DNA from: a bacterium
GTDB lineage: Bacteria > Bacillota > DTU030 > JBMNJR01
NCBI GenBank assembly: GCA_050951765.1
Contig: JBMNJR010000008.1
Coordinates: 54,795 to 118,794, forward strand
DNA: 64,000 nucleotides
Direction: 5' to 3'
Shown: positions 7,499 to 61,794 of the stretch, in pieces
Layout of the letters: each line of letters opens with the position of its first letter
Position numbering within the stretch: the first letter of the stretch is position 1
Notes under the pieces: generated by a model
Seen by the model: only the letters and a program-made list of their open reading frames with translations
What the model was told of the DNA's origin: nothing
Databases searched by the model: none
Translations under genes and position numbers: made by a program

Positions 7499-7535
7499 CC
7501 TTAAATTATTTATTTCTTTTTGCAGACTCTGAACC

Positions 7536-7590
7536 TGGCTAGCCTAATTTTACCGCCGGCTCTGCCACCGTGGCGGCCCTTCCAAGAAGT
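7536..7590. repeat. Dispersed intergenic repeat, family R2 copy
   Basis: GCTAGCCTAATTTTACCGCCGGCTCTGCCACCGTGGCGGCCC; near-identical to 35551..35600 and reverse-complementary to 25264..25308. Confidence 0.6.
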
Positions 7591-7702
7591 TTAAGTGTTA
7601 GCCGCAACCCCTTTTGTACCACAAAGTAGACATTCCTTTATCCTCGGAGAAATGTTGCAGCTAATTTTCGTCCTTATGCCGGTACCGTATATCGGCATGG
7701 TG

Positions 7703-8878
7703 CTACTCCTTAACCTCAATAAACCGTCCGCTCTGGGTCCGCACAAGATAAGGTTTGCCATTACGGGTATAGACCCTGGGCAAGCGCCGGCTAAGGCAAC
7801 AAAGTACTTCACCAAGAGTTACGCCTAAAAGGGGATTTACCTCCTCCGGTGATACTGAGGCTTCACCTTGCTTTCCAAAGATGACAACCTCCTCACCAAC
7901 CTTGACTTCCAAATCCCCGGCATCAACCATACACATATCGGCACAGGTGGCAACAATTGTTTTCCTTTGCCCCTTAAGCAACACCGGACATTTGCCGGCT
8001 AACCGTTTCGACAGCCCGTCACTGGAACCTAAAGGCAAGGTGATTATTCTTGTATCTTGGGCAGGGCGATAGAATGCGTCATAGCCGACACCATCCCCTG
8101 CTGCTACCGGAATAGCATGCACAGCTATGGTCTTAAGTTGTAACGCCGGTTTGAGAGTTAGATTTTTCTCTGCCTCCGGGTAAGGGTAGTAGCCGTAAAA
8201 AATGCGGCCTGTTCGTACTGCATTAAAATGAGTGCTGGGTAAATCATATGTTGCGGCACTATTGGCAGCATGTCGCAGCGGAATATCAATCCCTGCCGCC
8301 GCCAATTCCTCAAGGACTTGATTAAATACCCTCAATTGCCTTTCCGTGTCAGTCTTATCCTTCTGCGCAGCCTTGGCAAAATGAGTGAAGATCCCTTCCA
8401 ACTCAATACCAGCTAAACCTTTCACAAACCGGGCAAACTCAACTGCATCCTCCGGCTGCACACCAATGCGATTTAAACCAGTATTTACCTTCATATGCAC
8501 CTTAACCACTTTCCCTTTTTCTTGCGCCACAGCCGCCAATTCTTTCGCTATTTGCCGGGTATACAGGGCAAGAGTTAAATCATGATCAACGGCTGCTGCC
8601 AATTGGCAAGGAGCAGTATAACCCAAAACCAAAATAGGAGCAGTGATCCCGTGATCACGCAACTCCAAAGCCTCATCCACCATCGCCACAGCAAGACGGT
8701 CTGCGCCGTTGGCCAATGCTACCCGCCCCACTTCCACAGCGCCATGGCCGTAGCCGTCACCTTTTACCACTACAATAAACTGAACCTTCTCCCCTATATG
8801 ACGCCTAATCTCCCGTACATTATTACCAATGGCATCAGTATCGATTTCAACCCATGCCGGTCGCCAAAATCTATCCAT
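7703..8878 (-). CDS. alr: Alanine racemase
   Basis: MDRFWRPAWVEIDTDAIGNN...VVVKGDGYGHG (PLP-lysine region); start set at internal ATG 8878 with RBS GGAAAGGGG; ORF track extends to 8992. Confidence 0.85.
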   Translation of the reverse strand: MDRFWRPAWVEIDTDAIGNNVREIRRHIGEKVQFIVVVKGDGYGHGAVEVGRVALANGADRLAVAMVDEALELRDHGITAPILVLGYTAPCQLAAAVDHDLTLALYTRQIAKELAAVAQEKGKVVKVHMKVNTGLNRIGVQPEDAVEFARFVKGLAGIELEGIFTHFAKAAQKDKTDTERQLRVFNQVLEELAAAGIDIPLRHAANSAATYDLPSTHFNAVRTGRIFYGYYPYPEAEKNLTLKPALQLKTIAVHAIPVAAGDGVGYDAFYRPAQDTRIITLPLGSSDGLSKRLAGKCPVLLKGQRKTIVATCADMCMVDAGDLEVKVGEEVVIFGKQGEASVSPEEVNPLLGVTLGEVLCCLSRRLPRVYTRNGKPYLVRTQSGRFIEVKE

Positions 8879-14227: not shown

Positions 14228-14451
14228 GATGCTCCCCTACTCTCCCTTCTCATCCACAGTATGCAATTTCACAGTAACCGTTCAGATCAATATTTAAAAT
14301 TTCAGCACGCAGGATATCCTCACCTTTATACACTAGTAGTTTATCTTTCCTTCGACTACCTTTTACCGGAATCCTTTTCGCAGTACAATAATTTTTTCAT
14401 TGTCACCTGTTAGATGTTTCCACGATAACATCTACTCTAAAAATACGACCC

Positions 14452-14547
14452 GGCTCGACAAGGAACCGGAGAGAGCGAAGCCGGAAGTGATGGACAATTA
14501 ATTTTCATTCCTCTGCTGGTGTCGAGAATCGGCATGGGCGTCTACTC
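14452..14547. repeat. Dispersed repeat, family R1 partial copy (right half)
   Basis: About 96 bp near-identical to 35432..35532 and 54603..54710, ending ...CGGCATGGGCGTCTACTC; on the minus strand begins 6 nt after the dnaE stop. Confidence 0.7.
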
Positions 14548-14552
14548 CCATC

Positions 14553-17500
14553 CTACCCGGACAAATCCTTGACTGCTGCTTCTGCAGGCCCTAAAATCGT
14601 TTTCAGCTCATTCATCAGTTCACTTTGCAGTTCCACTGTTAAATTAGGCACCCGATGCAAAGATTTCTCCTTTTGAAAGTAAAGAAAAACAGGATGCGGG
14701 CCGGGAAACTTTGTCAGCAAACGGAGCACTTGATTCATGCTTTGTTTTGCCTGCCTGGAACTTAGACGTACATATAGTGCTTTCTTCGCCGCATCCAAGT
14801 GTGATGTATTCAACTCGGTTATCTGCTCTGCTATTACTTTCACCTCAGTTTCCTGCCAATTTACCTCCCCTTTGACCAAAAGCAGTGCATCTTCCGTCAA
14901 TAAGGAACGACTTTGCTCATATAGCCGGGGAAAGATAACAACTTCATATGTACCTGTAAGATCCTCTATGGTAGCAAATAGCATCTGTTGCCCATTTTTG
15001 GTCAATATTTGTTTACCGGCGCTATATACACCGGCCAAAGTGACTTTTGCACCATCGGCAAAATCCTGTAATTCCTTGCTACTTACGGTTTGTTCCCGTA
15101 AAAAAGTAGCATAACGGGCTAAAGGATGGCCGGAAATATAAAGACCCACAGTCTCCTTTTCCAGAGCAAGCAACTGTTCCGGAGGAAACTCCGGTATTTG
15201 CGGCAGTTCCGCACCAATTGGATCCATTTCTTCAGTAAAAAATTCAAATAGAGAATACTGGCCGGTTAATTTCTCCCGCTGCAATTGTTGCGCAACATCT
15301 AATACCTGATCCAACCCTGCCAACAAACGGGCTCGCAACTCCCCTACGGAGCCAAAGGCTCCACACTTAATCAAACTCTCAATAACCCGCTTATTGACTA
15401 CCCGCAGATCAACTCGATTACAAAAATCTTGAAATGAGGTGAAACTCCCACCCTCTTCCCGGGTGGCAATAATGTTTTCAATTGCCCCTTTTCCCACATT
15501 TTTCACCGCAGCCAAGCCAAACCTGATTTTCCTGCCTACAACAGTAAAATCGGTTAAACTCTCATTTACATCAGGTGGTAAAATCTCAATACCCAACCGG
15601 CGACATTCATCAATATAAAGAGCTACCTTATCGGTATTCTCCATGACACTGGTTAATAGAGCTGCCATGTACTCTACCGGATAGTTTGCCTTCAAATAAG
15701 CCGTCTGATAAGCAATCACGGCATACGCCGCAGAATGACTTTTATTAAACCCATACCCGGCAAAATGGGCCATTAAATCAAAGATTTCCCCTGCTATCTT
15801 TGTAGGAATCTTCCGCTTAACAGCCCCCTGTAAAAATTGTTCCCGCAATGCGGCAATGACTTCTGGCTTCTTTTTCCCCATGGCTCGCCGCAAAATATCG
15901 GCTTCACCAAGGCTGAAACCTGCCAATTGGCTGGCAATCTGCATTACCTGCTCTTGATATAGAATAATTCCATATGTTTCCTTCAGGATCGGCTCCAAAG
16001 TAGGATGTAGGTATTCCACCTGCTTGCGTTGGTGTTTGCGGGCAATATAATCCTCTACCATACCACTGCCTAACGGCCCCGGTCGGTAGAGAGCAACTAA
16101 AGCCACAATATCATTAAGACTGCTGGGCTGTAAATCTTTAATCAGTGTCCTCATACCCGCACTTTCAAGCTGGAAGACACCGGAAGTGTTCCCCTGCTGT
16201 AACATTGCATATGTATTCTGATCTTCTGCAGGAATATTCCGGGGATCGATAACTATTCCTTGGGTAACTCGAATAATTTTCAAGGTATTCTGGATCACTG
16301 TTAAAGTTCTTAAGCCTAAGAAATCCATTTTTAACAGCCCAAGTTCTTCAATAGTATCCCAGGGAAATTGAGTTGTCACCACTCCGTCTGAAGTTTTCTG
16401 TAAGGGAACATAAGCAGTTAAAGGTTCCCGGGAAATAACTATACCTGCAGCATGAACCGAAGCGTGCCGGGGGAGGCCTTCTAAGATTCGAGCAGTTTCT
16501 AATACCTCTCCCAAAGCAGGGTCTTGGGCTACCAATTGGCGCAAGTTTGTACTTACCTGCAAAGCCTTCTCCAGAGTCATGCCCAATTCCATTGGGATCA
16601 ACTTCGCCAATTTGTCTACATCACCATAGGGGATACCATAAACCCGCCCTACATCTCGCACTGCACCCCTTGCAGCCATGGTACCAAAGGTCACTATTTG
16701 GGCTACCCGGTCCTTACCATACCGTTTGATCACGTAATCAATTATTTCCCCTCGCCGGTCATCACAAAAATCTATATCTATATCAGGCATGGTTACCCGC
16801 TCCGGGTTTAGAAAACGCTCAAAGATAAGACCATGTGCCAACGGATCTATATCAGTAATACCGAGGCAATATGCCACCAAACTACCAGCTGCCGAACCGC
16901 GGCCAGGCCCGACCAAAATTCCCTGTTCCCGGGCAAAACGGATTAAATCCCACACAATCAGGAAATAACCAGCATAACCCATTTTATTGATCACATTAAG
17001 CTCATAAGCCAGCCGTTCCTTTATCTCCTCCGTCAGTTGAGCATAACGTCCTATTAAACCTTGCCGGCACAGTTGTTCTAAATATACTTCTGGAGTATTC
17101 CCACTAGGTAATGAAAAAGCAGGTAAATGCAAATGCCCAAAATCCAGTACTACGTTACAGCGCTCTGCAATAGCTATAGTATTAGCAACAGCCTCCGGAA
17201 CAGCATGAAACAGTTGCATCATTTCCGCCGTTGATTTTAAGTAAAACTCTTGAGTGGGAAAACGCAGTCTGCCTTCATCAGCCAAATTTTTTCCCGTTTG
17301 AATGCATAGCAGCACATCATGAGCAGTAGCATCATTTTTCTTGATGTAATGCAAGTCATTAGTAGCCACCATGGGTATAGCCATATCCCTGGCTAACCGG
17401 ATTATTTTTTCGTTGCTTTCTTTCTCCACTGCCATACCATGATCTTGCAACTCCAGAAAAAAGTTATTCTGCCCAAATATCTCCCTGTATGTTTTGGCAG

Positions 17501-24970: not shown

Positions 24971-25099
24971 GCCGATAACCAAATTTTTCACCTCAATTAT
25001 GATTCGATTCTTTCTCAACTAAGTGAAATCCTGCCTTATATGGTATAATTTTACTTCCACTTCCTAAAAAAACCCTTAGCAGTAAAACGCGTTATAGCT

Positions 25100-25310
25100 A
25101 GGATAGCCGTTTTGCATAGCTGGCGACTGCTTTTTGAGGTTAGAAGTTGGAAGTTAGAAAAGAACAATATAATATTAGGTTCTATGTATAAAAAAAGAGA
25201 AATAATGAACTCTTTCGCATTACTGTCTAACTTCGAATCTCTAACCTCTAACTTTTTGGAGAGGGTGGTCACGGTCGCCGGAGCCAGCGACAAAATTAGG
25301 CTAGCCCCGG
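25100..25310. repeat. Family R2 repeat locus: inverted duplicate modules
   Basis: 22 bp module CTAACTTC(C/G)AA...CTAACCTC present inverted at 25136..25157 and direct at 25227..25248; followed by the AAAATTAGGCTAGCC module at 25264..25308. Confidence 0.6.
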
Positions 25311-25341
25311 ATAAAGTGTTTCAGAATAGAAACAAATTCCC

Positions 25342-32854: not shown

Positions 32855-34161
32855 TTTACCCGGGAGGAAGCCAAACTGGATAATCTGGCAGTGGAATAGA
32901 AGCTGGCAGGATCAGATGTCTTATTAATAGTAGCTGTATATTCTTCTTTTTTCAGCCAGCTGGCAGGCGGGATATGACAGCGCATGATATATATAAAACT
33001 AGCGGTCGGTACCCCTTGTATCCGCTCCCATAACTGCTCTTGTTCATAGGGAAAAGCCCGGTTGTTCCCCTCAATGGCAGCACATAGCTTTAAAACACTT
33101 TGCGCCTGCTCTGTCCCGGTAGCAAAATCCAAGACCATTATTCCCCTTGTTCTTTGCAGATAAGCGCCGCCGGGGAAACTTGCACTTTTTTCCCAGTGCA
33201 GTATGGGAGCATTGGTATAAAAAGCCACTTTAGCACCCTGTTCCAAATGAAATAGAGCAATACCCGCCGCATAACTAATAATATTCTCCAATAGCAAGTC
33301 TTCGGTTGAATAATTACTTTCATACAACGGCTGACCGGCAACACTCACATCAAGTACTACCAAGCAGTATTCCGACTCCTTGCGCTGATAAAGATTGCTC
33401 TTTAAGCTACCTGTACGGGTTGTGGCATACCAATTGATGCTTTTTAACGAATCGGTCAGTTGATAATCCCTCACTCCCTGAACTTGATACGGATCCTCAA
33501 TGCCAATATTTCGCTCCCGTTCATTGTCCTCCAAGGCCAAAACCGGCAGCAGGTCGCCTGCACCTTTGAGCCGGGGAAAAACAAAAAGATACTGTTCTTC
33601 CCCAATCCGGATCAGGCCACGAAACAACCCGGAAGGATCGCCCACAAACAGCTGCGGAGGAGGAAGATAATATACTCCCCGCTTAGATATCTTAAGCTGC
33701 AAATCAACATTTATTCTCTCCTTTTCCGGCAACCATGCATAGGAAACTGTATGATGATACCAAACTGGTACCACCTGACCAGCTGCGGCCAAACCATCGG
33801 CGCTTGCAACGGTGGTAACAGTTATGGGAATATCACCAAAACAGGTAAAACCTTCCGGAAGGGAAAAACTGATCCCCGCCCGGACCAAAGGCAAAAACCA
33901 CCGGTTACTAAATTTAAATTTCCATGTTAGCTTTTCATCGGTAAAAATATTTTCTTGTATTGCTAGACTCTCACCCATGGTAAACCGACTGCTAAATAAG
34001 GTCCAGCCATAACTCCATAATAAATAAGCAAGATATAGTAAAAGAAAGAAAAAAGGGATTGCCAAACGATAATACAGGGTAAAAATGGCAACTGCAGCTG
34101 CGATCAGTTGGGCTCTACTGCCGGCAAGGGGTGTTGTACTAATAACCAGATGTTTTTTCAT
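32818..34161 (-). CDS. DUF58 domain protein (VWA-like MoxR partner)
   Basis: 447 aa; N-terminal TM segments; overlaps the MoxR gene by 4 nt. Confidence 0.65.
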   Translation of the reverse strand: MKKHLVISTTPLAGSRAQLIAAAVAIFTLYYRLAIPFFFLLLYLAYLLWSYGWTLFSSRFTMGESLAIQENIFTDEKLTWKFKFSNRWFLPLVRAGISFSLPEGFTCFGDIPITVTTVASADGLAAAGQVVPVWYHHTVSYAWLPEKERINVDLQLKISKRGVYYLPPPQLFVGDPSGLFRGLIRIGEEQYLFVFPRLKGAGDLLPVLALEDNERERNIGIEDPYQVQGVRDYQLTDSLKSINWYATTRTGSLKSNLYQRKESEYCLVVLDVSVAGQPLYESNYSTEDLLLENIISYAAGIALFHLEQGAKVAFYTNAPILHWEKSASFPGGAYLQRTRGIMVLDFATGTEQAQSVLKLCAAIEGNNRAFPYEQEQLWERIQGVPTASFIYIMRCHIPPASWLKKEEYTATINKTSDPASFYSTARLSSLASSRVKCIDLGRGEAQR

Positions 34162-35162
34162 TCTTCCCGCGCCCTTAATGGTACCGGTATTTCACCCAGC
34201 AGTTGCTTAAGAAAAGCTTCAGGTTTATTGCCTTTATACCTCTCGCTTTTTTGTAGTTTTAAGCGATGGTTAAATACCGGCAAACATAATTCCTTAATAT
34301 CGTCCGGCAAAACATAGTCACGCCCGCTGAGCAAAGCCCATGCTTTGGCGGCTTTAACCATGCCGATGGAAGCACGTGGGCTCAAAGCAAGCTCCACCGC
34401 TTCGTGCCGCCTAGTTGCCTCCACCAAGTCTAGGATATACTGTACCAGCGAATCCTCTATATATACATCTTGGGTCAATTGTTGCAGTTCCATAACCCTT
34501 TGGGGATTAAGTACAGGCTCCACCTTTTCCACAGCATGGTCAAAAACATGTTTACTCACAATAATAGTCTCAGCAGAGCGCAATGGATACCCCAATGTGA
34601 TTTTCAGTAAAAAACGATCCTGCTGGGCAAAGGGTAAAGGAAATGTGCCTTCACTTTCGATTGGATTTTGCGTGGCTAACACTAAAAAGGGTTCAGGCAA
34701 TAAACGGGTTATACCATCAATGGTAATTTGTTTTTCCTCCATCGCTTCCAATAAAGCCGATTGCGTACGGGGAGTAGTACGATTAAGTTCATCAGCCAAT
34801 AATATATTGGTCAATACCGGGCCGGGGCGAAACTCAAACTCCCCTGTTTTGATATTATAATAATTAATACCCGTTACATCGGAAGGCATAAGATCCGGCG
34901 TAAACTGAATCCGCTTAAAACTGCATCCCAAAACCCTGGCTATAGTTTTCGCCAAGGTTGTTTTCCCTGTACCGGGAAGATCTTCAATTAAGATATGGCC
35001 CCGGGCTAACAAAGCTGTCAAAGCCAACTCCACAGCATCGCTCTTCCCGATAATTATCTCTTCAATCCGCCCTTTGGTGATACTTAATATTTCTGCTGCA
35101 GCGGAAAAACTCAATTCTGCAGGGTTTTGCCTTGGCAAGGAAAACCCTCCTTCCTCATGCAA
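34158..35162 (-). CDS. MoxR family AAA+ ATPase
   Basis: Walker A GTGKTT and Walker B LLADELNR. Confidence 0.85.
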   Translation of the reverse strand: MHEEGGFSLPRQNPAELSFSAAAEILSITKGRIEEIIIGKSDAVELALTALLARGHILIEDLPGTGKTTLAKTIARVLGCSFKRIQFTPDLMPSDVTGINYYNIKTGEFEFRPGPVLTNILLADELNRTTPRTQSALLEAMEEKQITIDGITRLLPEPFLVLATQNPIESEGTFPLPFAQQDRFLLKITLGYPLRSAETIIVSKHVFDHAVEKVEPVLNPQRVMELQQLTQDVYIEDSLVQYILDLVEATRRHEAVELALSPRASIGMVKAAKAWALLSGRDYVLPDDIKELCLPVFNHRLKLQKSERYKGNKPEAFLKQLLGEIPVPLRAREE

Positions 35163-35284
35163 AATATTTGCTCTGATTTTATCCTATCATAAAATTCTTT
35201 CCAGCTTTGTTTTTTCCTCTTTCTGATAGCATTTGCACCTAAACGGCTAATTCTGGGCTCGACAAAAAAACCCGGCTCCTTATA

Positions 35285-35532
35285 GAGTAGACGCCCATGC
35301 CGGTATACATCACCTGCGGAAGGCCTGTCCAAAGCCGAAGGCGACGGGCACTAAAGCTTAGGTTCCTTGTCCGGCATGTACATGAGCCCATGGCACCTCT
35401 ATACTTCCGGCAACTGAAAGTATAGAGGCATGGCTCGACTCGACAAGGTACCGGAGAGAGCGAAGCCGGAAGTGGTGAACAATTAATTTTCATTCCTCTG
35501 CTGGTGCCGAGAATCGGCATGGGCGTCTACTC
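35285..35532. mobile_element. MITE-like element, repeat family R1, complete copy
   Basis: 248 bp bounded by perfect 18 bp terminal inverted repeats GAGTAGACGCCCATGCCG (35285..35302) and CGGCATGGGCGTCTACTC (35515..35532); internal hairpin CTCTATAC...GTATAGAG; no ORF. Confidence 0.7.
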
Positions 35533-35550
35533 TGAAAACATTTTGTCCGG

Positions 35551-35600
35551 GGCTTGCCTAATTTTGCCGCTGGCTCCGGCGACCGTGGCCGCCCTCCAAC
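35551..35600. repeat. Dispersed intergenic repeat, family R2 copy
   Basis: GCCTAATTTTGCCGCTGGCTCCGGCGACCGTGGCCGCCC, homologous to 7536..7590. Confidence 0.6.
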
Positions 35601-35740
35601 TGAATAACTACTATAAAAGGCTGGGCGGCCATGCTCAGTCGCCGGCTATGTCAAACAGGTTGATCGTAAAAACAATGTCAACAGTGCTTGGCTTGCACGT
35701 ATTTTCATCTCTGTGCCGGTGGTGAAACTGACATGAAAAA

Positions 35741-36523
35741 CTATTTTGCCAACTGCAAGGAATTAGTACAATTAAATCGTGCAAATTGCTCAGGCTCAGA
35801 CAAATACATAAATTTCTGAGGTTTGGCAATATATTGACTGTAAATACTTTCTCCCCTTAGCATTGGCCACAGATGCCGGATCGCGGGAACAAAACCATAA
35901 CTTAGATTTTTTACAAACCAATCACCCCCGCTGCTAGGCTTCACATAGTAAGCGCCACCATGGAATTGCAAGAATAATTGGTAGTCCGCCACCAATTGTG
36001 CATATACTAAATTTGCCATAACCAAGGGACTTGTGCCTAAATTCATTGTAATATGACCATAACCCGGTGGAATTAAAATAATATCTCCTACGGTAGCTCT
36101 AATAAAAACCACATCTTCGATCTCATCCGCTGCTTTGCCCTCGGCTTGCAGTAAATATCCCGCCTGACCATGCAAAACCTGATATACTTCACCATAAGTA
36201 AAAGATGTGCCCGGCTTCACCGGATGGTAATGACCCAATGTTTTCACATATTCTCCGGCAATTTTACCTGGCTTTAAGATTGTGATATCGTATCTGAGGT
36301 TATAGTTGTTAAACAACTCTTGGTGCTCTATGGAACTGATCCCCCGATATATATAATAGAACTCTTCTATAGCGGCAACGGCATCTACATAAGGCAATAC
36401 CGGTTTTAAGACTTCTCCATTACGTACCTCCGGCTCAATGGGAACTAAACCCTCACCAAAAACAAGACTGCAATCATCCTGTAAGGATAGAGCTAATCCT
36501 GTAACCGATTTTAAATTAAACAT
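35741..36523 (-). CDS. Cupin-type glucose-6-phosphate isomerase
   Basis: Cupin motifs (TLGHYH...GEVYQVLHG...IPPGYGH); start overlaps the end of the upstream phosphoglucomutase reading frame. Confidence 0.7.
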   Translation of the reverse strand: MFNLKSVTGLALSLQDDCSLVFGEGLVPIEPEVRNGEVLKPVLPYVDAVAAIEEFYYIYRGISSIEHQELFNNYNLRYDITILKPGKIAGEYVKTLGHYHPVKPGTSFTYGEVYQVLHGQAGYLLQAEGKAADEIEDVVFIRATVGDIILIPPGYGHITMNLGTSPLVMANLVYAQLVADYQLFLQFHGGAYYVKPSSGGDWFVKNLSYGFVPAIRHLWPMLRGESIYSQYIAKPQKFMYLSEPEQFARFNCTNSLQLAK

Positions 36524-37975
36524 AATTATCCCTCCCCAATTCTAAGAACTGCGCAATTTGTTGCGCGATCCTTGCTACAACCTGTTCTGTTTCCGCTTCA
36601 ACATATACGCGCAGCACATCTTCAGTCCCGGAAGGACGGACAAGACACTATGCACCATCAGAAAGTACCATTTTTACACCATCCAACCGCTGTATTTGTA
36701 TAAGCTTACGACCTGCCAATTGGTCCGGAGGATTGGTAGTTAATACTGCTAATACCCTCGCTTTTGCTGCAGCTGTACAATAGAAGTCCACTCTTTTGCT
36801 ATACAACTGTCCATACTTAGCTCTGAGCATTGCCATTAGTTCCGGTAAAGTAATATCATATGCAGACAAAATACCGATCAACAATAATCCGGCAACAATG
36901 CCATCTTTTTCAGGTATTTCCCGATTAACCCCTAACCCTCCGCTCTCTTCTGCTCCTAATACTGCCCCTTCGTTAAGCATTGCCTGTGCTAAATATTTAA
37001 ATCCCACCGGTGTTTCAATCATCTTAATCCCTGCTTTTTCTGCCACCCGATCGATCATATGGGTAGTTGCCACTGTCCGAGCAAAAGCAGGATGTTCTGC
37101 ACTGTGATCTGCCATATAATCGGCATAAACGGTAAAAACCTGATTGGGGCTAATATAATTACCATCTGGACCAATAAACCCAAAACGATCCCCATCCCCG
37201 TCCAGCGCAATACCTAAATCCGCTCGGCTCTCCCGCACAGCCGCAGCTAAGTTACCGAGGTTTTCTTCCTTGGGCTCAGGGGATAATTGCCCGCAAAAAG
37301 GTTGTTCGCTGTGAATAGTGAGCACATTATGACCAAGATTGCACAAAATATGCTCCATGTAACCTGCACCAGCGCCATACATAGGATCTACCATAACCTT
37401 TAATGCACAATTCCCATTGATACCCTCCATCAGTTTGCATAGATATCGCCGGTAAATCTCAGCAGAGGAAATTTTTCTGATCAGCTTCGCACCTATTTTG
37501 CAGTGAATCCAGTATTGGATGGAACTTCCGGCGGTATCAAAGCCTCAATGGCACCGGTTATCGCATTTGGCGCGGGACCGGCAAAATCGGGAATATATTT
37601 AATCCCATTATAGTAATAAGGATTATGGCTGGCCGTAATCATAATACCGCCGGCCAGGTGCAAGTCCTTAATTGTACAAGCTATGGCAGGAGTTGGTACC
37701 GGTTGTTCGTTTAGATAAACAGGGATACCGTTGGCTGCTAAAACTTGCGCCGCAACACTGGCAAAAACATCTGACAGCAAGCGCGTATCATAGCCAATCA
37801 CAACACCACGGGTATAATCCTGTCCATTCTTTATTAGATAGGCGGCAATCCCTTGTACGACCCGAGCCAAATTTTCAGGAGTAAACTCTTGACCAATAAT
37901 TGCCCGCCACCCATCGGTGCCAAATCTGATTAAGCCCACCCTTCGCTCCCTCCACGCTTTTTTCAAGTATCCCAA
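36516..37975 (-). pseudogene. Phosphoglucomutase/phosphomannomutase, disrupted
   Basis: Active-site TASHNP in 37493..37975; frameshift near 37440..37520 (A-run GCAAAATAGG); domains II-III in 36648..37430; in-frame TAG at 36648..36650 where Trp is expected (DGA*CLVRPSGTE); frame then continues 43 codons to TAA. Confidence 0.6.
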
Positions 37976-38209: not shown

Positions 38210-38240
38210 TAAATAAAAAATTGAACTATAGCGCATTATA

Positions 38241-38330
38241 TACTAGGGGAGCTGGAAACGCCAGCTGAGATAAAGACGTAATTAGTCTTTGACCCTTGAC
38301 CTGATCTGGATAATGCCAGCGTAGGGAAGT
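38241..38330 (+). promoter_or_regulatory. TPP (THI-box) riboswitch aptamer
   Basis: CTAGGGGAGC...GCTGAGA...ACCCTTGACCTGATCTGGATAATGCCAGCGTAGGGAAG matches conserved THI element segments. Confidence 0.85.
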
Positions 38331-38350
38331 AACTTTTGTTTTTGTTGTAA

Positions 38351-38386
38351 AGCATAAATCCTTATCCTGGGATTTATGCTTTTTTA
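38351..38386 (+). terminator. Riboswitch expression-platform terminator
   Basis: 11 bp stem AGCATAAATCC/GGATTTATGCT followed by TTTTT, just upstream of the thiW start. Confidence 0.65.
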
Positions 38387-38405
38387 CTTTACAGAAGGGA
38401 GGGAT

Positions 38406-38903
38406 ATGATGAAAACCCAAAAGCTTACATTAGCCGCGCTCTTCATTGCCTTCGCAACCTTGACCGCCCACGTGTTCTATATACCTGCCGGTGTAGCAAA
38501 ATGTTTTCCGATTCAACACACAGTGAACGTATTATCAGGGGTAATATTAGGACCTTGGTATGCAGTTTCCATTGCATTTTTAACTTCACTGCTGCGAAAT
38601 ATTCTGGGCACAGGTTCTCTTTTGGCTTTTCCCGGCAGTATGGTTGGAGCTTTTTTAGCAGGTATGTTATATCAAAAAACAGGAAACCAGTTAATGGCTT
38701 CCCTAGGCGAAATCGTTGGCACAGGATTTTTAGGCGCAATTGCTGCATATCCGGTAGTAAAGTTGCTTATGGGTCAAGATATTGCTATGTTCTTCTATGT
38801 GGTTCCTTTTTTTACCAGTACTACCGGCGGCACCATAATTGCCAATCTATTGTTAAAAGCAATTGCTTCCCTGAAGTTAATTAAATTGAATTCAGCTAGT
38901 TAA
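38406..38903 (+). CDS. thiW: Thiamine-precursor transporter ThiW-like
   Basis: Small polytopic membrane protein first behind the TPP riboswitch; start ATG 38406 with RBS GAAGGGAGGG; ORF track start 38376 lies inside the terminator. Confidence 0.7.
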   Translation: MMKTQKLTLAALFIAFATLTAHVFYIPAGVAKCFPIQHTVNVLSGVILGPWYAVSIAFLTSLLRNILGTGSLLAFPGSMVGAFLAGMLYQKTGNQLMASLGEIVGTGFLGAIAAYPVVKLLMGQDIAMFFYVVPFFTSTTGGTIIANLLLKAIASLKLIKLNSAS

Positions 38904-38927
38904 ACTGGATAATGGGGTGTATATTTA

Positions 38928-39749
38928 ATGAAGAATGTCTTGACTATTGCCGGCTCTGACAGCAGTGGCGGAGCAGGCATTCAGGCGGATCTAAAAACCT
39001 TTTCCGCCCATGGGGTTTTTGGCATGAGTGTGATTACAGCTATTACAGCTCAAAACACCCAAGGGGTTTTCGGTGTCGAAGACATCTCCGATGCAATGAT
39101 CGAAAAACAGATCGACGCAATATTTACCGACATTAAAGTTGATGCTGTGAAAATAGGCATGGTTTCCCAATCGAAAACCATTAAATCCATTGCAAAAAAA
39201 TTAAAGCAATACGCACCGAAAAATATCGTTTTAGATCCTGTTATGATCTCCAAAAGCGGCTATGATTTATTACTCCCGGAAGCCAAGGAAACGCTGATCA
39301 ACGAGCTTTTGCCGCTTGCTACCATAGCTACGCCAAATATTCCGGAAGCTGAAGTCATAACCGACATCAAGATCGCCACCACCCAAGACATGGAAAAAGC
39401 GGCAATAAAAATTCATGCACTGGGGACAGAAAATGTCCTGATCAAGGGTGGCCATATGCAAGCAGAGGCAACCGATATATTATACAATGGGAAAGAATTC
39501 TTTTATTTCACTGCAGAAAGAATCGCCACAAAAAATACCCATGGGACCGGTTGCACCTTATCAGCCGCCATTGCCAGTAACCTGGCTAAAGGTTATCCGG
39601 TAAGGGAAGCAGTGGCGCAAGCAAAGGATTATATTACCACAGCCATAAGGCATGCATTAGACTTGGGCACAGGTGTAGGGCCGACAAATCATTTTTATAC
39701 CTTATACAAAAAGGCTGGTTTACTTGATAATGGAGCTGAAACCAATTGA
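38928..39749 (+). CDS. thiD: Hydroxymethylpyrimidine/phosphomethylpyrimidine kinase
   Basis: VLTIAGSDSSGGAGIQADLKT N-terminus. Confidence 0.9.
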   Translation: MKNVLTIAGSDSSGGAGIQADLKTFSAHGVFGMSVITAITAQNTQGVFGVEDISDAMIEKQIDAIFTDIKVDAVKIGMVSQSKTIKSIAKKLKQYAPKNIVLDPVMISKSGYDLLLPEAKETLINELLPLATIATPNIPEAEVITDIKIATTQDMEKAAIKIHALGTENVLIKGGHMQAEATDILYNGKEFFYFTAERIATKNTHGTGCTLSAAIASNLAKGYPVREAVAQAKDYITTAIRHALDLGTGVGPTNHFYTLYKKAGLLDNGAETN

Positions 39750-40570
39750 AAATACTGCAAAGGATTTCAAAACTGTTACCGGAAATCAAAGCAAGAAAAC
39801 CGCTAATCCATCATATAACAAACTTTGTCACTGTAAATGATTGTGCAAATATTACTCTTGCCATCGGCGCTTCCCCGATCATGGCTGTTGATGGGGCTGA
39901 GGTGGCGGAAATTGTGTCAATGGCCTCTGCACTAGTATTGAATAGCGGCACATTAACTTCTGACTCCATTAAATCTATGCTTATAGCGGGGAAAAAAGCA
40001 AACGAGCTGAAAATACCTGTAATTCTTGACCCTGTGGGAGTGGGTGCTACTACATTAAGAAATGAAGCAATAAGAAAGCTATTGACAAATGTTAAAATTG
40101 CGGTACTTAAAGGCAATATGTCAGAAATAAAGTTTATATCCGGCTTGGATGTTAGCATTAGAGGGGTAGATTCTACCGCAAGTGAAGAAGGAAGCGCAGA
40201 AGCAGCAAAAAAATTGGCTGCGCAGTTAGGATGCGTGGTGGCTATAACAGGTAAGCGGGATATTATATCGGATGGAGATATAACCTTTTTTATCGATAAT
40301 GGCCATGAAATGTTGGCACATATTACCGGCACCGGCTGTATGATCTCATCATTAATCGCCTCATACAGTGGGGTTACAGATGATTATCTAACTGCTACTT
40401 TGGGAGGGATAATCTCAATGGGAATTGCCGGGGAAATTGCTTCCCGATCATTAACAAACGACCAGGGAATAGGAAGCTTTAAGGTGAATCTATTTGATTG
40501 TATCTATAAACTTACATCAGATACGATCATAAAAGAAGGTGCTATAAGTGTTTACGAAAGAAAGGATTAA
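39746..40570 (+). CDS. thiM: Hydroxyethylthiazole kinase
   Basis: Conserved ThiM N-terminal region; 4 nt overlap with thiD. Confidence 0.85.
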
Positions 40571-41177
40571 TTATACTCTCTATTTAGTAACCGATAGGGA
40601 TTTATTAGGCAAGAGGGATCTGGCTACAAGTATTGCGGAAGCTATTGCCGGTGGTGTAACTATGATTCAGTTGCGAGAAAAGAAATGTACAACAAGAGAA
40701 TTCTATAATCTTGCTGTCAAAACAAAAGCAGTCGCTGCCAGTTACAAGATACCCTTTATTGTTAACGATAGGTTAGACATAGCTTTAGCAGTGGATGCTG
40801 ACGGGCTTCATGTTGGCACTGATGACCTGCCGGTAAGTGTGGCCAGAAATTTGCTTGGTCCCGATAAAATTTTAGGAGTATCAGCGGCAAATCTTGCTGA
40901 GGCGCAGGCAGCACAAGCCCAAGGCGCCGACTATCTTGGTGTAGGAGCCATCTTCCCAACCGCAACCAAAGAGGTTACCCACAGTGTAAGCTTAACGGAT
41001 TTGCGGCTGATTAAATCCTCTGTGCAAATTCCCATAGTGGCTATCGGCGGCATCAACGAAACAAATGCAAAAGAAGTAATGCAGACAGGTATTGACGGAA
41101 TTGCTGTGGTTTCCGCTATTCTAAGCAAACCTGATATCTGCGCTGCAGCCCAAAAACTCTATAGTATAATAGTTTAG
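40548..41177 (+). CDS. thiE: Thiamine-phosphate synthase
   Basis: YLVTDR motif and TIM-barrel ThiE features. Confidence 0.9.
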
Positions 41178-43451: not shown

Positions 43452-43524
43452 CTAAATTAATATAAATGGTCGTGTCAAATAGTTGTAGGACATTTACTTT
43501 TATCGTCCCTTTTGGTTTTTGTCA

Positions 43525-44934
43525 CTAGAGCCTGATATTACCGTCTTGAAGGCCACGTAAACAGGGAAACATCGGAACCACTTTGCCCCTCTTTAATATG
43601 GGTATATTGGCGAACTTTTCATTAGATACTTTTTCGAATGACCGGTTCATTTTCCGCATCATGCTCTGGTTAAATCTATATCTTAAACTTGTACCCTTAG
43701 ATTTGGTATCACGAAAATGTTTTAGTTCTATCTTCCCACCACTTGCCATAAACGCTCGTAGTTCCGCCATCTTTCGCAGCCCTTCTTGGCTCCAGCCCAT
43801 GGGGCGGCTGCTTATTCTGCTCGAGAGAATATGGCTCACATGACCTCTGTACAGCTGCTGCCGCATTCTTCATGGTTATATATTACTATTGCTTCCCAGT
43901 TGTTGGTTATATATCTATGGAATTTGCGTATTTTCTCCTTCTCAGAGACACTGCCAGCCTTTTGGTATAGGCCTTTGATGATTGCTCTAAAGGCCTCTTT
44001 ATCAGAGTTTGAAAGTGCTGTGTAAATAGCAGTTCTTGCTTCCGGGTGTTGGCTCGTAGCAGTCATGATTGCTTTATTCAGGTGGTAACGATCTAATACT
44101 AACTTAGTGTTGGGAAGCCATTTTAGGCCTTCTTTTATCCAGGCCGCGCCATCACCATGTAGATAGATGCGTTCTATCTTCTCGGCTTCTGCCGCCTCTA
44201 ACCATAGGTCTTCATTGTCTTTACCACTACTGCTTATGTAATGGGTATTGATGCAGCTGCCGCGCTTTCTTTGCCTTTCTATCCCTTCGTGTATGCTTAT
44301 CAGCGGTACTATGCTGTTTTTACCGTCTTGCATGGATGCATGGTCTTCATCTGCATTTATATATAATACCGATGCCTGGCGTTTTTCGGTGGGCAGATCT
44401 ATCTTTAATTTTTTTACCTTGCGTAGCTTATTCATCACTGTTTGCCTACTTACTTCGCCCTTTGTAACGTATTTACTGCTTTTACCGTACGAGTTTTCAC
44501 TAGCACATTCTATGAGCCTTTGTGTAACAGCGGTGGATACTCGTTCGTATTTCTCTATCCCTACTGCTTTATCCAATAAATAGACATGCTCATCGTTCCT
44601 TTGATCATGAAAATAGGGTCCTGCTGAATACTATCTGTCCAAACTGTGTATAAAGCTCTCGCTTATCTTTCCTACGCTCAATTACAATTCCTTCTTGTCT
44701 TCTACTTGCTTTATCATCAACTATGGATTTGTCCAGCTCCTCAAGGTACGCTTCTACAATCTCTACTATGAAATTATCGGCCTTTTCTTTAAGATTTACT
44801 TCCATTTCTGCTATCGTTTTAGGTCCATCACCTTCAATGAAAAATTCTGCTACCCCCTTTATGAAATTTTCACAGATTTGTAGTAGAATAGTATCAAACA
44901 AGAGATCTCCTCCTTTGGTAATTGTTGTGGGCAA
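43525..44934 (-). pseudogene. ISLre2-type (UPF0236) transposase, fragmented into three frames
   Basis: Three collinear ORFs (44605..44934, 43836..44576, 43525..43866) that appear to be consecutive parts of one transposase. Confidence 0.55.
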
Positions 44935-45049
44935 ACTCTATTTTACCAAAAAGGACGATCTCTTGTTTCTTTTTTCCTACAATTATTTTACACTAGGAAT
45001 ATAAATAAACCTATACGCATAAATTAAGAACCCTTAAGACAGCAAAAGC

Positions 45050-45091: not shown

Positions 45092-45166
45092 GGGCCTGTA
45101 GCTCAGTGGGAGAGCGCCTGACTCGCATTCAGGAGGTCGAGGGTTCGACTCCCTTCAGGTCCACCA
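45092..45166 (+). tRNA. tRNA-Ala (anticodon CGC)
   Basis: Cloverleaf with G3:U70 alanine identity pair, anticodon loop CTCGCAT, T-loop TTCGACT, encoded CCA. Confidence 0.85.
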
Positions 45167-61045: not shown

Positions 61046-61182
61046 AAAGGTATTAAATAGGAGGTTTAAATATGCCAGAAGAATTCAAGATCGGATGCCA
61101 AAGGCCCCCTCTAAATAATAAAGACAATAACAAGCAAGTCTCTAACATCGAAGGGCAACCTGTGTTAAAGGAGGAACAATCC

Positions 61183-61794
61183 ATGGTTAAGGTTGGTAAA
61201 TCAGCACCGGAATTTACTGCTCCTGCATTCTATCAAGGAAAGTTTATGAATGTAAGTCTTTCCGAGTATATCGGCAAATGGGTATTGTTGTGCTTCTATC
61301 CCGGTGACTTTACCTTCGTCTGAGCAACAGAAATTTCAGCAGTTGCTGAAAAGCACCAAGAGCTGCAAGATTTAGGGGTGGAAATATTATCTGTTAGTGT
61401 AGACAGCGTATTTGTTCACAAAATGTGGAACGATCATGAACTGTCCAAAATGATTAATGGCAATATCCCATTCCCTATGTTATCCGACCAAGACGGCAGT
61501 ATCGGTAAAAAATATGGCATTTATGATGAAGATGCAGGAGTTGAAACAAGAGGAAGATTTATTATTGACCCTGATGGTATTATCCAGGGGTTTGAAGTAT
61601 TAACACCTCCGGTGGGCAGAAATGTAAGTGAATCCATTCGCCAAATTCAAGCATTTCAACTGGTCCGTGCTGCAGGAGGAGCCGAAGCAACACCCTCAGG
61701 CTGGAAGCCTGGCAAGAAGACTCTCAAGCCAAATCCCGAACTTGTGGGTAATGTTTGGAAAGAGTGGAAGGTAAGCGAAGCCTTTGAAGATTAG
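61183..61794 (+). CDS. Peroxiredoxin (AhpC/Prx family) with in-frame TGA at the peroxidatic position (predicted selenocysteine)
   Basis: RBS AAAGGAGG plus ATG 61183; ...FYPGDFTFV[TGA][11 protein letters not shown]...[13 protein letters not shown]; the TGA at 61321..61323 replaces the Cys of the FTFVCPTE motif; C-terminal EATPSGW lacks the resolving Cys of AhpC. Confidence 0.75.
61324..61350 (+). promoter_or_regulatory. SECIS-like hairpin downstream of the UGA
   Basis: Stem TTCAGC/GCTGAA with AGTT loop, beginning 11 nt after the TGA. Confidence 0.55.

Follow-up and report, generated by a model that had tools for sequence, protein, structure and literature searches.

A lineage-specific REP/MITE-like intergenic repeat family adjoining stop codons in an uncultured Firmicute

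The window analyzed in this study is a stretch of 64,000 nucleotides from an uncultured Firmicute of the Desulfotomaculum/Peptococcaceae radiation, and by the MoxR protein, which has a 100% identical counterpart in an NCBI MAG, the nearest sequenced relatives of the host show only about 74% identity (Desulfotruncus arcticus). It is a piece of ordinary chromosome with dnaE, pyk, alr, sepF, cobO, lgt and similar genes. Nearly all of the genes lie on the minus strand and the plus-strand GC skew is negative throughout (-0.03 to -0.20), which identifies the minus strand as the leading-strand sequence. A 578-nt spacer between the gene for a cupin-type glucose-6-phosphate isomerase (GPI; 35741-36523, minus strand) and moxR (34158-35162, minus strand) holds the palindromic element examined here (c1, 35284-35533), which the first-pass annotation had described as a complete, 248-bp MITE-like element with perfect 18-bp terminal inverted repeats (TIRs).

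Several other features of the window were also recorded. Next to the GPI gene, a phosphoglucomutase/phosphomannomutase (36648-37975, minus strand) is read as two ORFs lying 62 nt apart, one with domain I (37493-37975) and the other with domains II-III (36648-37430); domain IV was not detected, and the possible explanations are a pseudogene, a frameshift and an unusual split enzyme. A TPP riboswitch (38235-38344, plus strand, 78 bits) precedes a four-gene plus-strand cluster (38376-41177). The peroxiredoxin (AhpC/TSA) gene at 61072-61794 (plus strand) is also read as two ORFs, and the same split is called in JGI and Logan contigs; an in-frame TGA (61321-61323) replaces the peroxidatic Cys (DFTFV*ATE) and is directly followed by a GCAAC...GTTGC hairpin, so that the gene looks like a selenocysteine type (PrxU-like) with a putative SECIS element. 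Insertion sequences (IS) are present at two places. A degraded ISLre2/UPF0236-family IS with its transposase in three ORF fragments (43468-44997, minus strand) lies beside tRNA-Ala (45092-45166). An intact copy with 96% identity to it is found immediately outside the window, on the left (L124 6165-7711). At 56685-59671, an ISNCY-family (rve) element is split by IS21 (istA 57595-59157, truncated istB 57077-57601). At IS21, the JGI strain differs from the window in having an intact 241-aa IstB and an extra 265-aa ORF (L124 7766-9109; L140/L142). In addition, JGI locus L142 and the window are 100.000% identical over 6.8 kb on one side of IS21 and 99.4% identical on the other, and this step in identity suggests either recombination between strains or a chimeric assembly.

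The TIRs of c1 are indeed perfect, and over 19 bp rather than 18 (35284-35302 / 35515-35533), and the arms can be followed to 37 nt with 78% complementarity (35284-35320 / 35497-35533). The central hairpin is also present as annotated, with a perfect stem of 11 bp (35396-35406 / 35418-35428) in place of the 8 bp given before, and it sits inside a further 11-bp stem (35361-35371 / 35442-35452, 91%). When c1 was folded as RNA, both strands folded better than their shuffles (z = -6.1 and -6.9), as is expected of any long imperfect palindrome. Four promoter-like sites were counted in c1 compared with 0.7 expected. At the palindrome centre (35377-35446), symmetric promoter-like sites point outward, with TGTACA-17-TATACT on the plus strand and TTGTCG-16-TATACT on the minus strand, the latter towards moxR; these are consensus matches only (9/12). 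The left junction, the centre and the right-arm body of c1 were confirmed by two independent assemblies (L121 to 35516; L120 to 35354), and the last 17 nt together with the right junction are supported by the window sequence alone.

The statement that c1 contains no ORF is literally incorrect, as a 93-aa ATG ORF crosses it on the minus strand (35239-35520). The ORF has no homologue among 5.8 billion proteins, and the differences between the repeat copies described below show no synonymous bias (4/10 differences between copies c2 and c3 are synonymous) and no conserved reading frame. We therefore take the ORF as spurious, and on the same 4/10 count and unconserved frames a small coding gene was rejected as the identity of the repeat. 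Using the 93-aa ORF as a protein probe for copies miscalled as genes, none was found.

When the left half of c1 is aligned as its reverse complement, AAGTATAGAGG, GACAAGGAACC and the terminal 37 nt follow each other in the same block order as in the right half. The left half is thus a diverged inverted copy of the right half, which makes the 248 bp a dimer of a smaller unit and not a unitary element. The right-arm unit (c1R, 35402-35533, minus strand) begins with the head 5'-(A)GAGTAGACGCCCATGCCG at 35533 reading leftwards and is detected by the unit profile with an nhmmer E of 1e-34. On the opposite strand, the head profile detects the head of the diverged inverted unit together with the sequence next to it (c1L, 35284-35348, plus strand) at E 3e-9. 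The terminal 19 nt of c1L and c1R are identical and identity then falls to about 55%, and the perfect 11-bp hairpin (CCTCTATACTT / AAGTATAGAGG, 35396-35428) marks the junction of the two unit tails. As shown by these alignments, c1 looks MITE-like with perfect TIRs because two inverted units are joined at their tails with their heads outward. The description of c1 as a non-coding, multi-copy, strongly folding repeat with TIRs is supported, and the term complete MITE is not.

The sequence scanned for this repeat, called family A here, amounts to about 82 kb, namely the window plus 9.7 kb on the left (L124) and 8.6 kb on the right (L142), both reached through exact-protein look-ups; those with the IS21 IstA protein and with several ORFs of guessed start gave no record. 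The basic unit shown by the copies is about 105-138 nt long, and consists of a strongly conserved head, 5'-GAGTAGACGCCCATGCCG, followed by a weakly conserved small hairpin. The recurrence of the right arm at two other places in the window, already noticed in the first-pass annotation, was reproduced at 14445-14548 and 54573-54711. In a BLAST search of the window against itself, 35436-35532 and 14451-14547 were 94.8% identical, 35402-35531 and 54573-54709 were 79.7% identical over 138 nt, and 14445-14546 and 54608-54709 were 90.2% identical over 102 nt. Allowing up to 3 mismatches, the 18-mer GAGTAGACGCCCATGCCG has four matches in the window, compared with 0.00 expected from shuffles. Monomer c2 (14445-14548, minus strand) is about 105 nt long and tail-truncated, with its head 5 nt beyond the TAG (14553-14555) that terminates dnaE; at the inner end of c2, a terminator-like hairpin leads into a T-run, a feature limited to c2 among the copies. 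Monomer c3 (54573-54711, minus strand) is about 138 nt long, and its head AAGTAGAC lies 2 nt past the cobO stop codon (TAA, 54713-54715). A degenerate, head-proximal copy, c4 (7646-7712, minus strand), has a GAGTAG head whose TAG is the stop codon of the alanine racemase gene (7703-7705). It scored E 2e-12 with a head profile whose seed alignment included c4 itself, and independent support comes from the units profile (E 2e-4) and from shuffles, 0/500 of which scored as well. A further unit starting at the TAG stop of the GPI gene (35697-35743, minus strand) would be very degenerate and is weak (nhmmer E 0.39-3; local alignment 1/500 shuffles), and it was left out of the copy count. Outside the window, 9 kb to its left, another degenerate copy (L124 829-885) is carried by a JGI contig whose strain of origin is 99.5% identical, which means that, strictly, the family reaches beyond the window. 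In total, 5-7 copies were found in about 82 kb, with c1 as the one dimer and no second full-length 248-bp copy.

The heads are the best-conserved part of the family, the 18-mer being identical in c1L, c1R and c2 and matching at 17/18 positions in c3, and the bodies differ by 5-20% between copies and by about 45% in the case of c1L. All of these heads carry a terminal GTAG, in the form GAGTAGAC in c1L, c1R and c2, AAGTAGAC in c3 and GAGTAGC in c4; the head of the degenerate copy left of the window reads AATAGAC. The 4-5 nt outside the heads differ from copy to copy (TTCA, ATGG, ATCA, TATA, TAAG). A near-tag hairpin, TGCCGA-TTC-TCGGCA, starts 7 nt past GTAG; only c1R has it in perfect form, c2 showing one mismatch and c3 two, and in c4 it is shifted. 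The monomers share the head and have different inner breakpoints. No inverted partner was found to the left of these two monomers (31/500 and 471/500 shuffles scored as well); the value of 31/500 belongs to the segment 54514-54537, which was rejected as an inverted partner of c3 because it was not significant. A second, diverged unit just after c2, with the start GAGTAGATG and with AATGAAAAAATTATTGT at the right spacing, was likewise not significant (58/500 shuffles).

Family A insertions are located, or have been retained, directly 3' of stop codons and ahead of the following gene. The distance from head to stop codon is 5 nt at dnaE, 2 nt at cobO and 0 nt at alr, in spacers of about 325, 700 and 205 nt, and under uniform placement such adjacency would have a probability of roughly 1e-5 by a rough estimate. 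The genes neighbouring c2, c3 and c4 are all co-directional, and each of these copies lies downstream of an ORF. Being inserted 3' of a stop codon, the copies would be transcribed as part of a 3' UTR or an intra-operon spacer. In 5/5 independent loci (c1R, c2, c3, c4 and the copy left of the window), the GTAG strand is the minus strand, that is, the G-rich leading-strand sequence or lagging-strand template; this bias cannot be separated from gene orientation, and taken alone it falls short of significance (p about 0.06). The cobO spacer ends with a canonical intrinsic terminator (GGAAGCCCCGAGGGGTTTCC + T7; 54078-54104, minus strand), some 610 nt past the stop codon of cobO, so that c3 and the following 470 nt or so are placed between the stop codon and the terminator. 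From stop codon to terminator, the family A copy comes first, then non-coding sequence that is unique over about 270 nt, and finally a B-like copy, and the whole of the spacer may be a repeat-expanded 3' UTR.

The same spacers hold a second intergenic repeat, family B, of 75-90 nt with the core GGCTAGCCTAATTTTGYCGCTGGC.... Its copies lie at 35537-35610 (+), with an inverted partner at 35605-35661 (-), at 25096-25156 (+) and 25235-25322 (-), and at 7522-7607 (+) and 54236-54300 (-). Some of them stand alone, and others form two inverted dimers with outward heads, one at 25.1-25.3 kb and one at 35.54-35.66 kb. Two copies start with CTAYTCTGAAAC, which overlaps the final 6 nt of the A head (35527-35532). 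This layout of monomers and inverted dimers, shared by families A and B, suggests a general process in this genome.

Wherever an independent assembly or strain was examined, each family A copy occupied the same site, with 99.4-100% identity. Without gaps, c1 was recovered in Logan contigs from two other runs, c2 in a JGI contig (L134) and in Logan contigs, and c3 at three JGI loci (L140, L141 and L142, on two JGI contigs). No insertion polymorphism or presence-absence difference was observed in any sample examined. Short-read contigs from other samples break inside the copies, at 35516, 35354 and 14517, and one contig stops precisely where the right TIR begins, a place at which the known copies have fewer than 30 identical bases in common. 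These breaks hint at more copies elsewhere in the genome or the community; low coverage would have the same effect. In practical terms, family A repeats break short-read assemblies of this organism.

Beyond this organism, neither family A nor family B was found in about 55 kb covering moxR and its surroundings in the nearest relatives (L137-L139) or in 74 kb around a related ISNCY transposase of another related organism (L145-L154). Family A gave no match in plasmid and phage collections (blastn) or in viral contigs. Using the 17-mer CGGCATGGGCGTCTACT, a scan of GTDB genomes returned at least 119 chance matches, in high-GC genomes, and the core CATTCCTCTGCTGGTG was present in none of the matches listed; a 33-nt two-block pattern gave two chance matches in JGI metagenome contigs, both in actinobacterial coding sequence. 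At the gathering threshold, Rfam recognizes only the TPP riboswitch and 2 tRNAs in the whole window, and permissive searches of c1, c2 and c3 gave nothing credible, so that family A matches no Rfam family at either level. A group II intron remnant, a retron msr/msd, a T-box or riboswitch leader, 6S RNA, an omega or bridge RNA and an integron attC site were each rejected, as there is no Rfam match, no reverse transcriptase or integrase nearby, and the flanks are housekeeping genes. The att sites of an island were also rejected, since direct copies are separated by 21-kb segments in which dnaE, sepF and other genes of this sort are located.

Several known repeat systems share features with family A. 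GTAG REP systems include a cognate RAYT (Y1/HUH) gene, usually flanked by repeats, and number tens to thousands of copies per genome. GTAG REPs lie downstream of ORFs between unidirectional genes and form head-to-head and tail-to-tail dimers, longer 'TIR repeats' flank RAYT-like TIRYT genes in 'TIRtrons', and no GTAG REPs have been reported in Firmicutes (Di Nocera 2013; PMC3733652). REPs and REPINs are mobilized by RAYT Y1 transposases (PMC3733652; PMC3116915). Like the GTAG REPs, REPINs and BIMEs, family A has a terminal GTAG (GTRG) tag, is extragenic and located downstream of ORFs between co-directional genes, and its tags either adjoin the stop codon of the upstream gene or provide the TAG of that codon. 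Also as in those systems, it comprises singletons (c2, c3 and c4) and an inverted dimer that folds into one long hairpin (c1), leaves no target duplication, and shares its spacers with another family. However, REPs measure 20-40 nt with a 5-13-bp stem-loop at the tag, in contrast to about 105-138 nt for the A unit; the near-tag hairpin of A stands 7 nt away from the tag and shows poor conservation; the two heads of c1 are separated by 176-210 nt, unlike those of a REPIN; and the host is a Firmicute. With the TIR repeats of TIRtrons, which are moderately abundant and occur as singles, dimers and clusters, family A shares longer inverted-repeat units that are unrelated to the short REPs, but TIR repeats are defined by a flanking tyrosine-transposase gene, and family A lacks the GGGGWSAS motif.

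The bacterial MITEs and ERIC-like repeats (Correia/NEMIS, ERIC/IRU, Bacillus bcr1, RUP/BOX) are similar to c1 in their size of 100-250 bp, the absence of coding sequence, the TIRs and the long imperfect hairpin, and they too are intergenic, probably co-transcribed and possibly equipped with outward promoter-like sites. Correia duplicates TA and bcr1 duplicates TTTAT, whereas family A has no target-site duplication, is mostly one-armed, has no cognate IS in the sequence searched and no similarity to plasmid or phage collections. The PATEs derived from IS200/IS605 resemble family A in lacking target duplication and coding sequence and in their strand and replication-direction bias. At both ends of a PATE, similar sub-terminal hairpins point in the same direction, and insertion takes place 3' of a fixed tetra- or pentanucleotide; in contrast, the ends of c1 are inverted and the bases outside the A heads are not conserved. 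Taken together, the traits of family A resemble those of GTAG-tagged REP/REPIN or TIR repeats more than those of a DDE-type MITE, and we file it as working like a GTAG REP family, not as a member of one.

Since unlinked non-coding segments are 90-95% identical in so isolated a lineage, some form of dispersal is required. We propose that the units were spread to unlinked intergenic sites by a head-recognizing enzyme supplied in trans. The likeliest candidate would be a single-strand HUH/Y1 transposase of RAYT/TIRYT type (IS200/IS605-related). Enzymes of this type leave no target duplication and act on the lagging-strand template; a DDE cut-and-paste transposase would be less likely. For this reading as a whole, we estimate a probability of roughly 0.45. 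The preference for HUH/Y1 trans-mobilization over a DDE cut-and-paste MITE, which is held with moderate confidence, comes from the GTAG head, the absence of duplication, the singletons and inverted dimers, the stop-abutting tags and the uniform strand, which together form the REP/REPIN/TIR-repeat combination. Group 1 RAYTs occur in Clostridia (PMC5581495), which makes such an enzyme plausible for this taxon. Against it, the unit is 3-5x the length of a REP, the near-tag hairpin is displaced by 7 nt and poorly conserved, no recent movement is seen in the assemblies and strains examined, and about 82 kb hold just 5-7 copies with one dimer. No transposase of any type was linked to the family, and no Y1/HUH transposase was present among the window ORFs scanned. 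As a long shot, units could instead be copied in a one-ended, 'head-anchored' way aimed at the first nucleotides past the stop codon, since nested tails of 105, 138 and 248 nt with one constant end are the pattern left by rolling-circle or target-primed copying. Once inserted, a copy may act through an RNA hairpin near the terminating ribosome, the supply of a stop codon, the terminator-like hairpin of c2 or the outward promoter-like sites of the dimer.

The main competitor is a classical MITE, in which the 248 bp would be an internally deleted derivative of a DDE-transposase IS, mobilized in trans through TIRs of 19-37 bp, and the one-armed copies would be its decayed remnants. The perfect 19-bp and imperfect 37-bp TIRs, the length of 248 bp without credible coding capacity, and the location of the strongest conservation at the ends of c1 all fit such an origin, and the genome has active DDE elements (ISNCY, IS21 and ISLre2 at 96-100%), one IS21 insertion being polymorphic between strains. 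However, no direct repeat of 2-10 bp was detected at any plausible boundary of c1 (...CCTTATA|GAGTAG...CTACTC|TGAAAAC), although the ends themselves are perfectly conserved. Within the sequence searched, the TIRs were not part of a known IS end: the ISNCY, IS21 and ISLre2 copies of the window and of L124 lack them even when 3 mismatches are allowed, and plasmids, phages and viral contigs yielded no autonomous element with the ends of c1. In addition, 3/4 good copies are one-ended and all of these keep the same end, and c2 and c3 still share 90-95% identity with other copies, which a two-ended cut-and-paste element explains poorly. The left arm is a diverged whole unit and not just a TIR, and instead of the several full-length copies or strain polymorphism by which a MITE is recognized, there is one full-length copy in about 82 kb. 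We consider this origin unlikely. A purely local origin of the dimer, by inverted duplication or template switching (quasipalindrome) at a pre-existing monomer followed by templated correction of the 19-bp arms, is in our judgment very improbable. It would account for the collapse of arm identity after 19 nt at 100% and for the single dimer seen, and the left flank does contain a unit-like fragment, AAAAAAACCCGGCTC (cf. AAAAATACGACCCGGCTC of c2), and a duplicated TCGAC. Nevertheless, the body of the left arm, about 45% diverged, keeps its three blocks in order like a member of a different subfamily, family B with its two inverted dimers makes dimers look regular, and the dispersal of the monomers would be left unexplained.

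The repeat might instead be a host module, that is, a cis-acting RNA element of the 3' UTR or intra-operon spacer (a stabilizer, a terminator/attenuator or a ribosome brake) or a protein-binding site, copied by recombination and kept by selection. Heads located 0-5 nt past the stops of co-directional genes, the strong fold, the terminator-like hairpin and T-run that end c2, the fixation of copies in all strains examined and the excess of promoter-like sites in the dimer (4 versus 0.7) would all be consistent with a function. In E. coli, REPs located within 15 nt of a stop codon are reported to cause ribosome stalling and lower translation (cited in PMC12306157). On the other hand, c1, c2 and c3 have no Rfam match at gathering or permissive thresholds, the local hairpins are not conserved and their paired changes are not compensatory (CCGG...CCGG becomes CAGG...CCAG in c3), the terminator-like feature occurs in c2 only, and the flanking genes (dnaE, cobO, alr, GPI/moxR) are functionally unrelated. 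It also counts against this idea that neither the nearest relatives, at their moxR loci, nor another related organism, over 74 kb, contain the family, and the asymmetry of mismatches (3 G.U versus 1 A.C) slightly favours the antisense strand. Selection for such a role as the origin of the family therefore seems to us decidedly improbable.

In conclusion, family A is a real, lineage-specific, REP/MITE-like intergenic repeat family, which is a new sequence family of a well-known kind. It is one small family and no new class of system, and the single feature that deserves follow-up is the strict adjacency of a GTAG head to stop codons in a Firmicute. The position of the head 0-5 nt past stop codons, once supplying the stop codon itself, parallels that of the GTAG REPs of Proteobacteria. 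Family A repeats fill spacers of 200-700 nt between housekeeping genes that would otherwise pass as unexplained 'regulatory' DNA. A bolder reading, that families A and B form the first REPIN/REP-like system in Clostridia/Firmicutes, GTAG-tagged, driven by a Y1 enzyme and with long units at stop codons, is in our view a long shot. For dispersal by a single-strand transposase, the reading preferred here, the existence of a cognate tyrosine transposase would mean that this kind of long-term, vertically inherited genome parasite or symbiont extends to spore-forming Clostridia, and if there is none, the targeting of stop codons would still require a mechanism.
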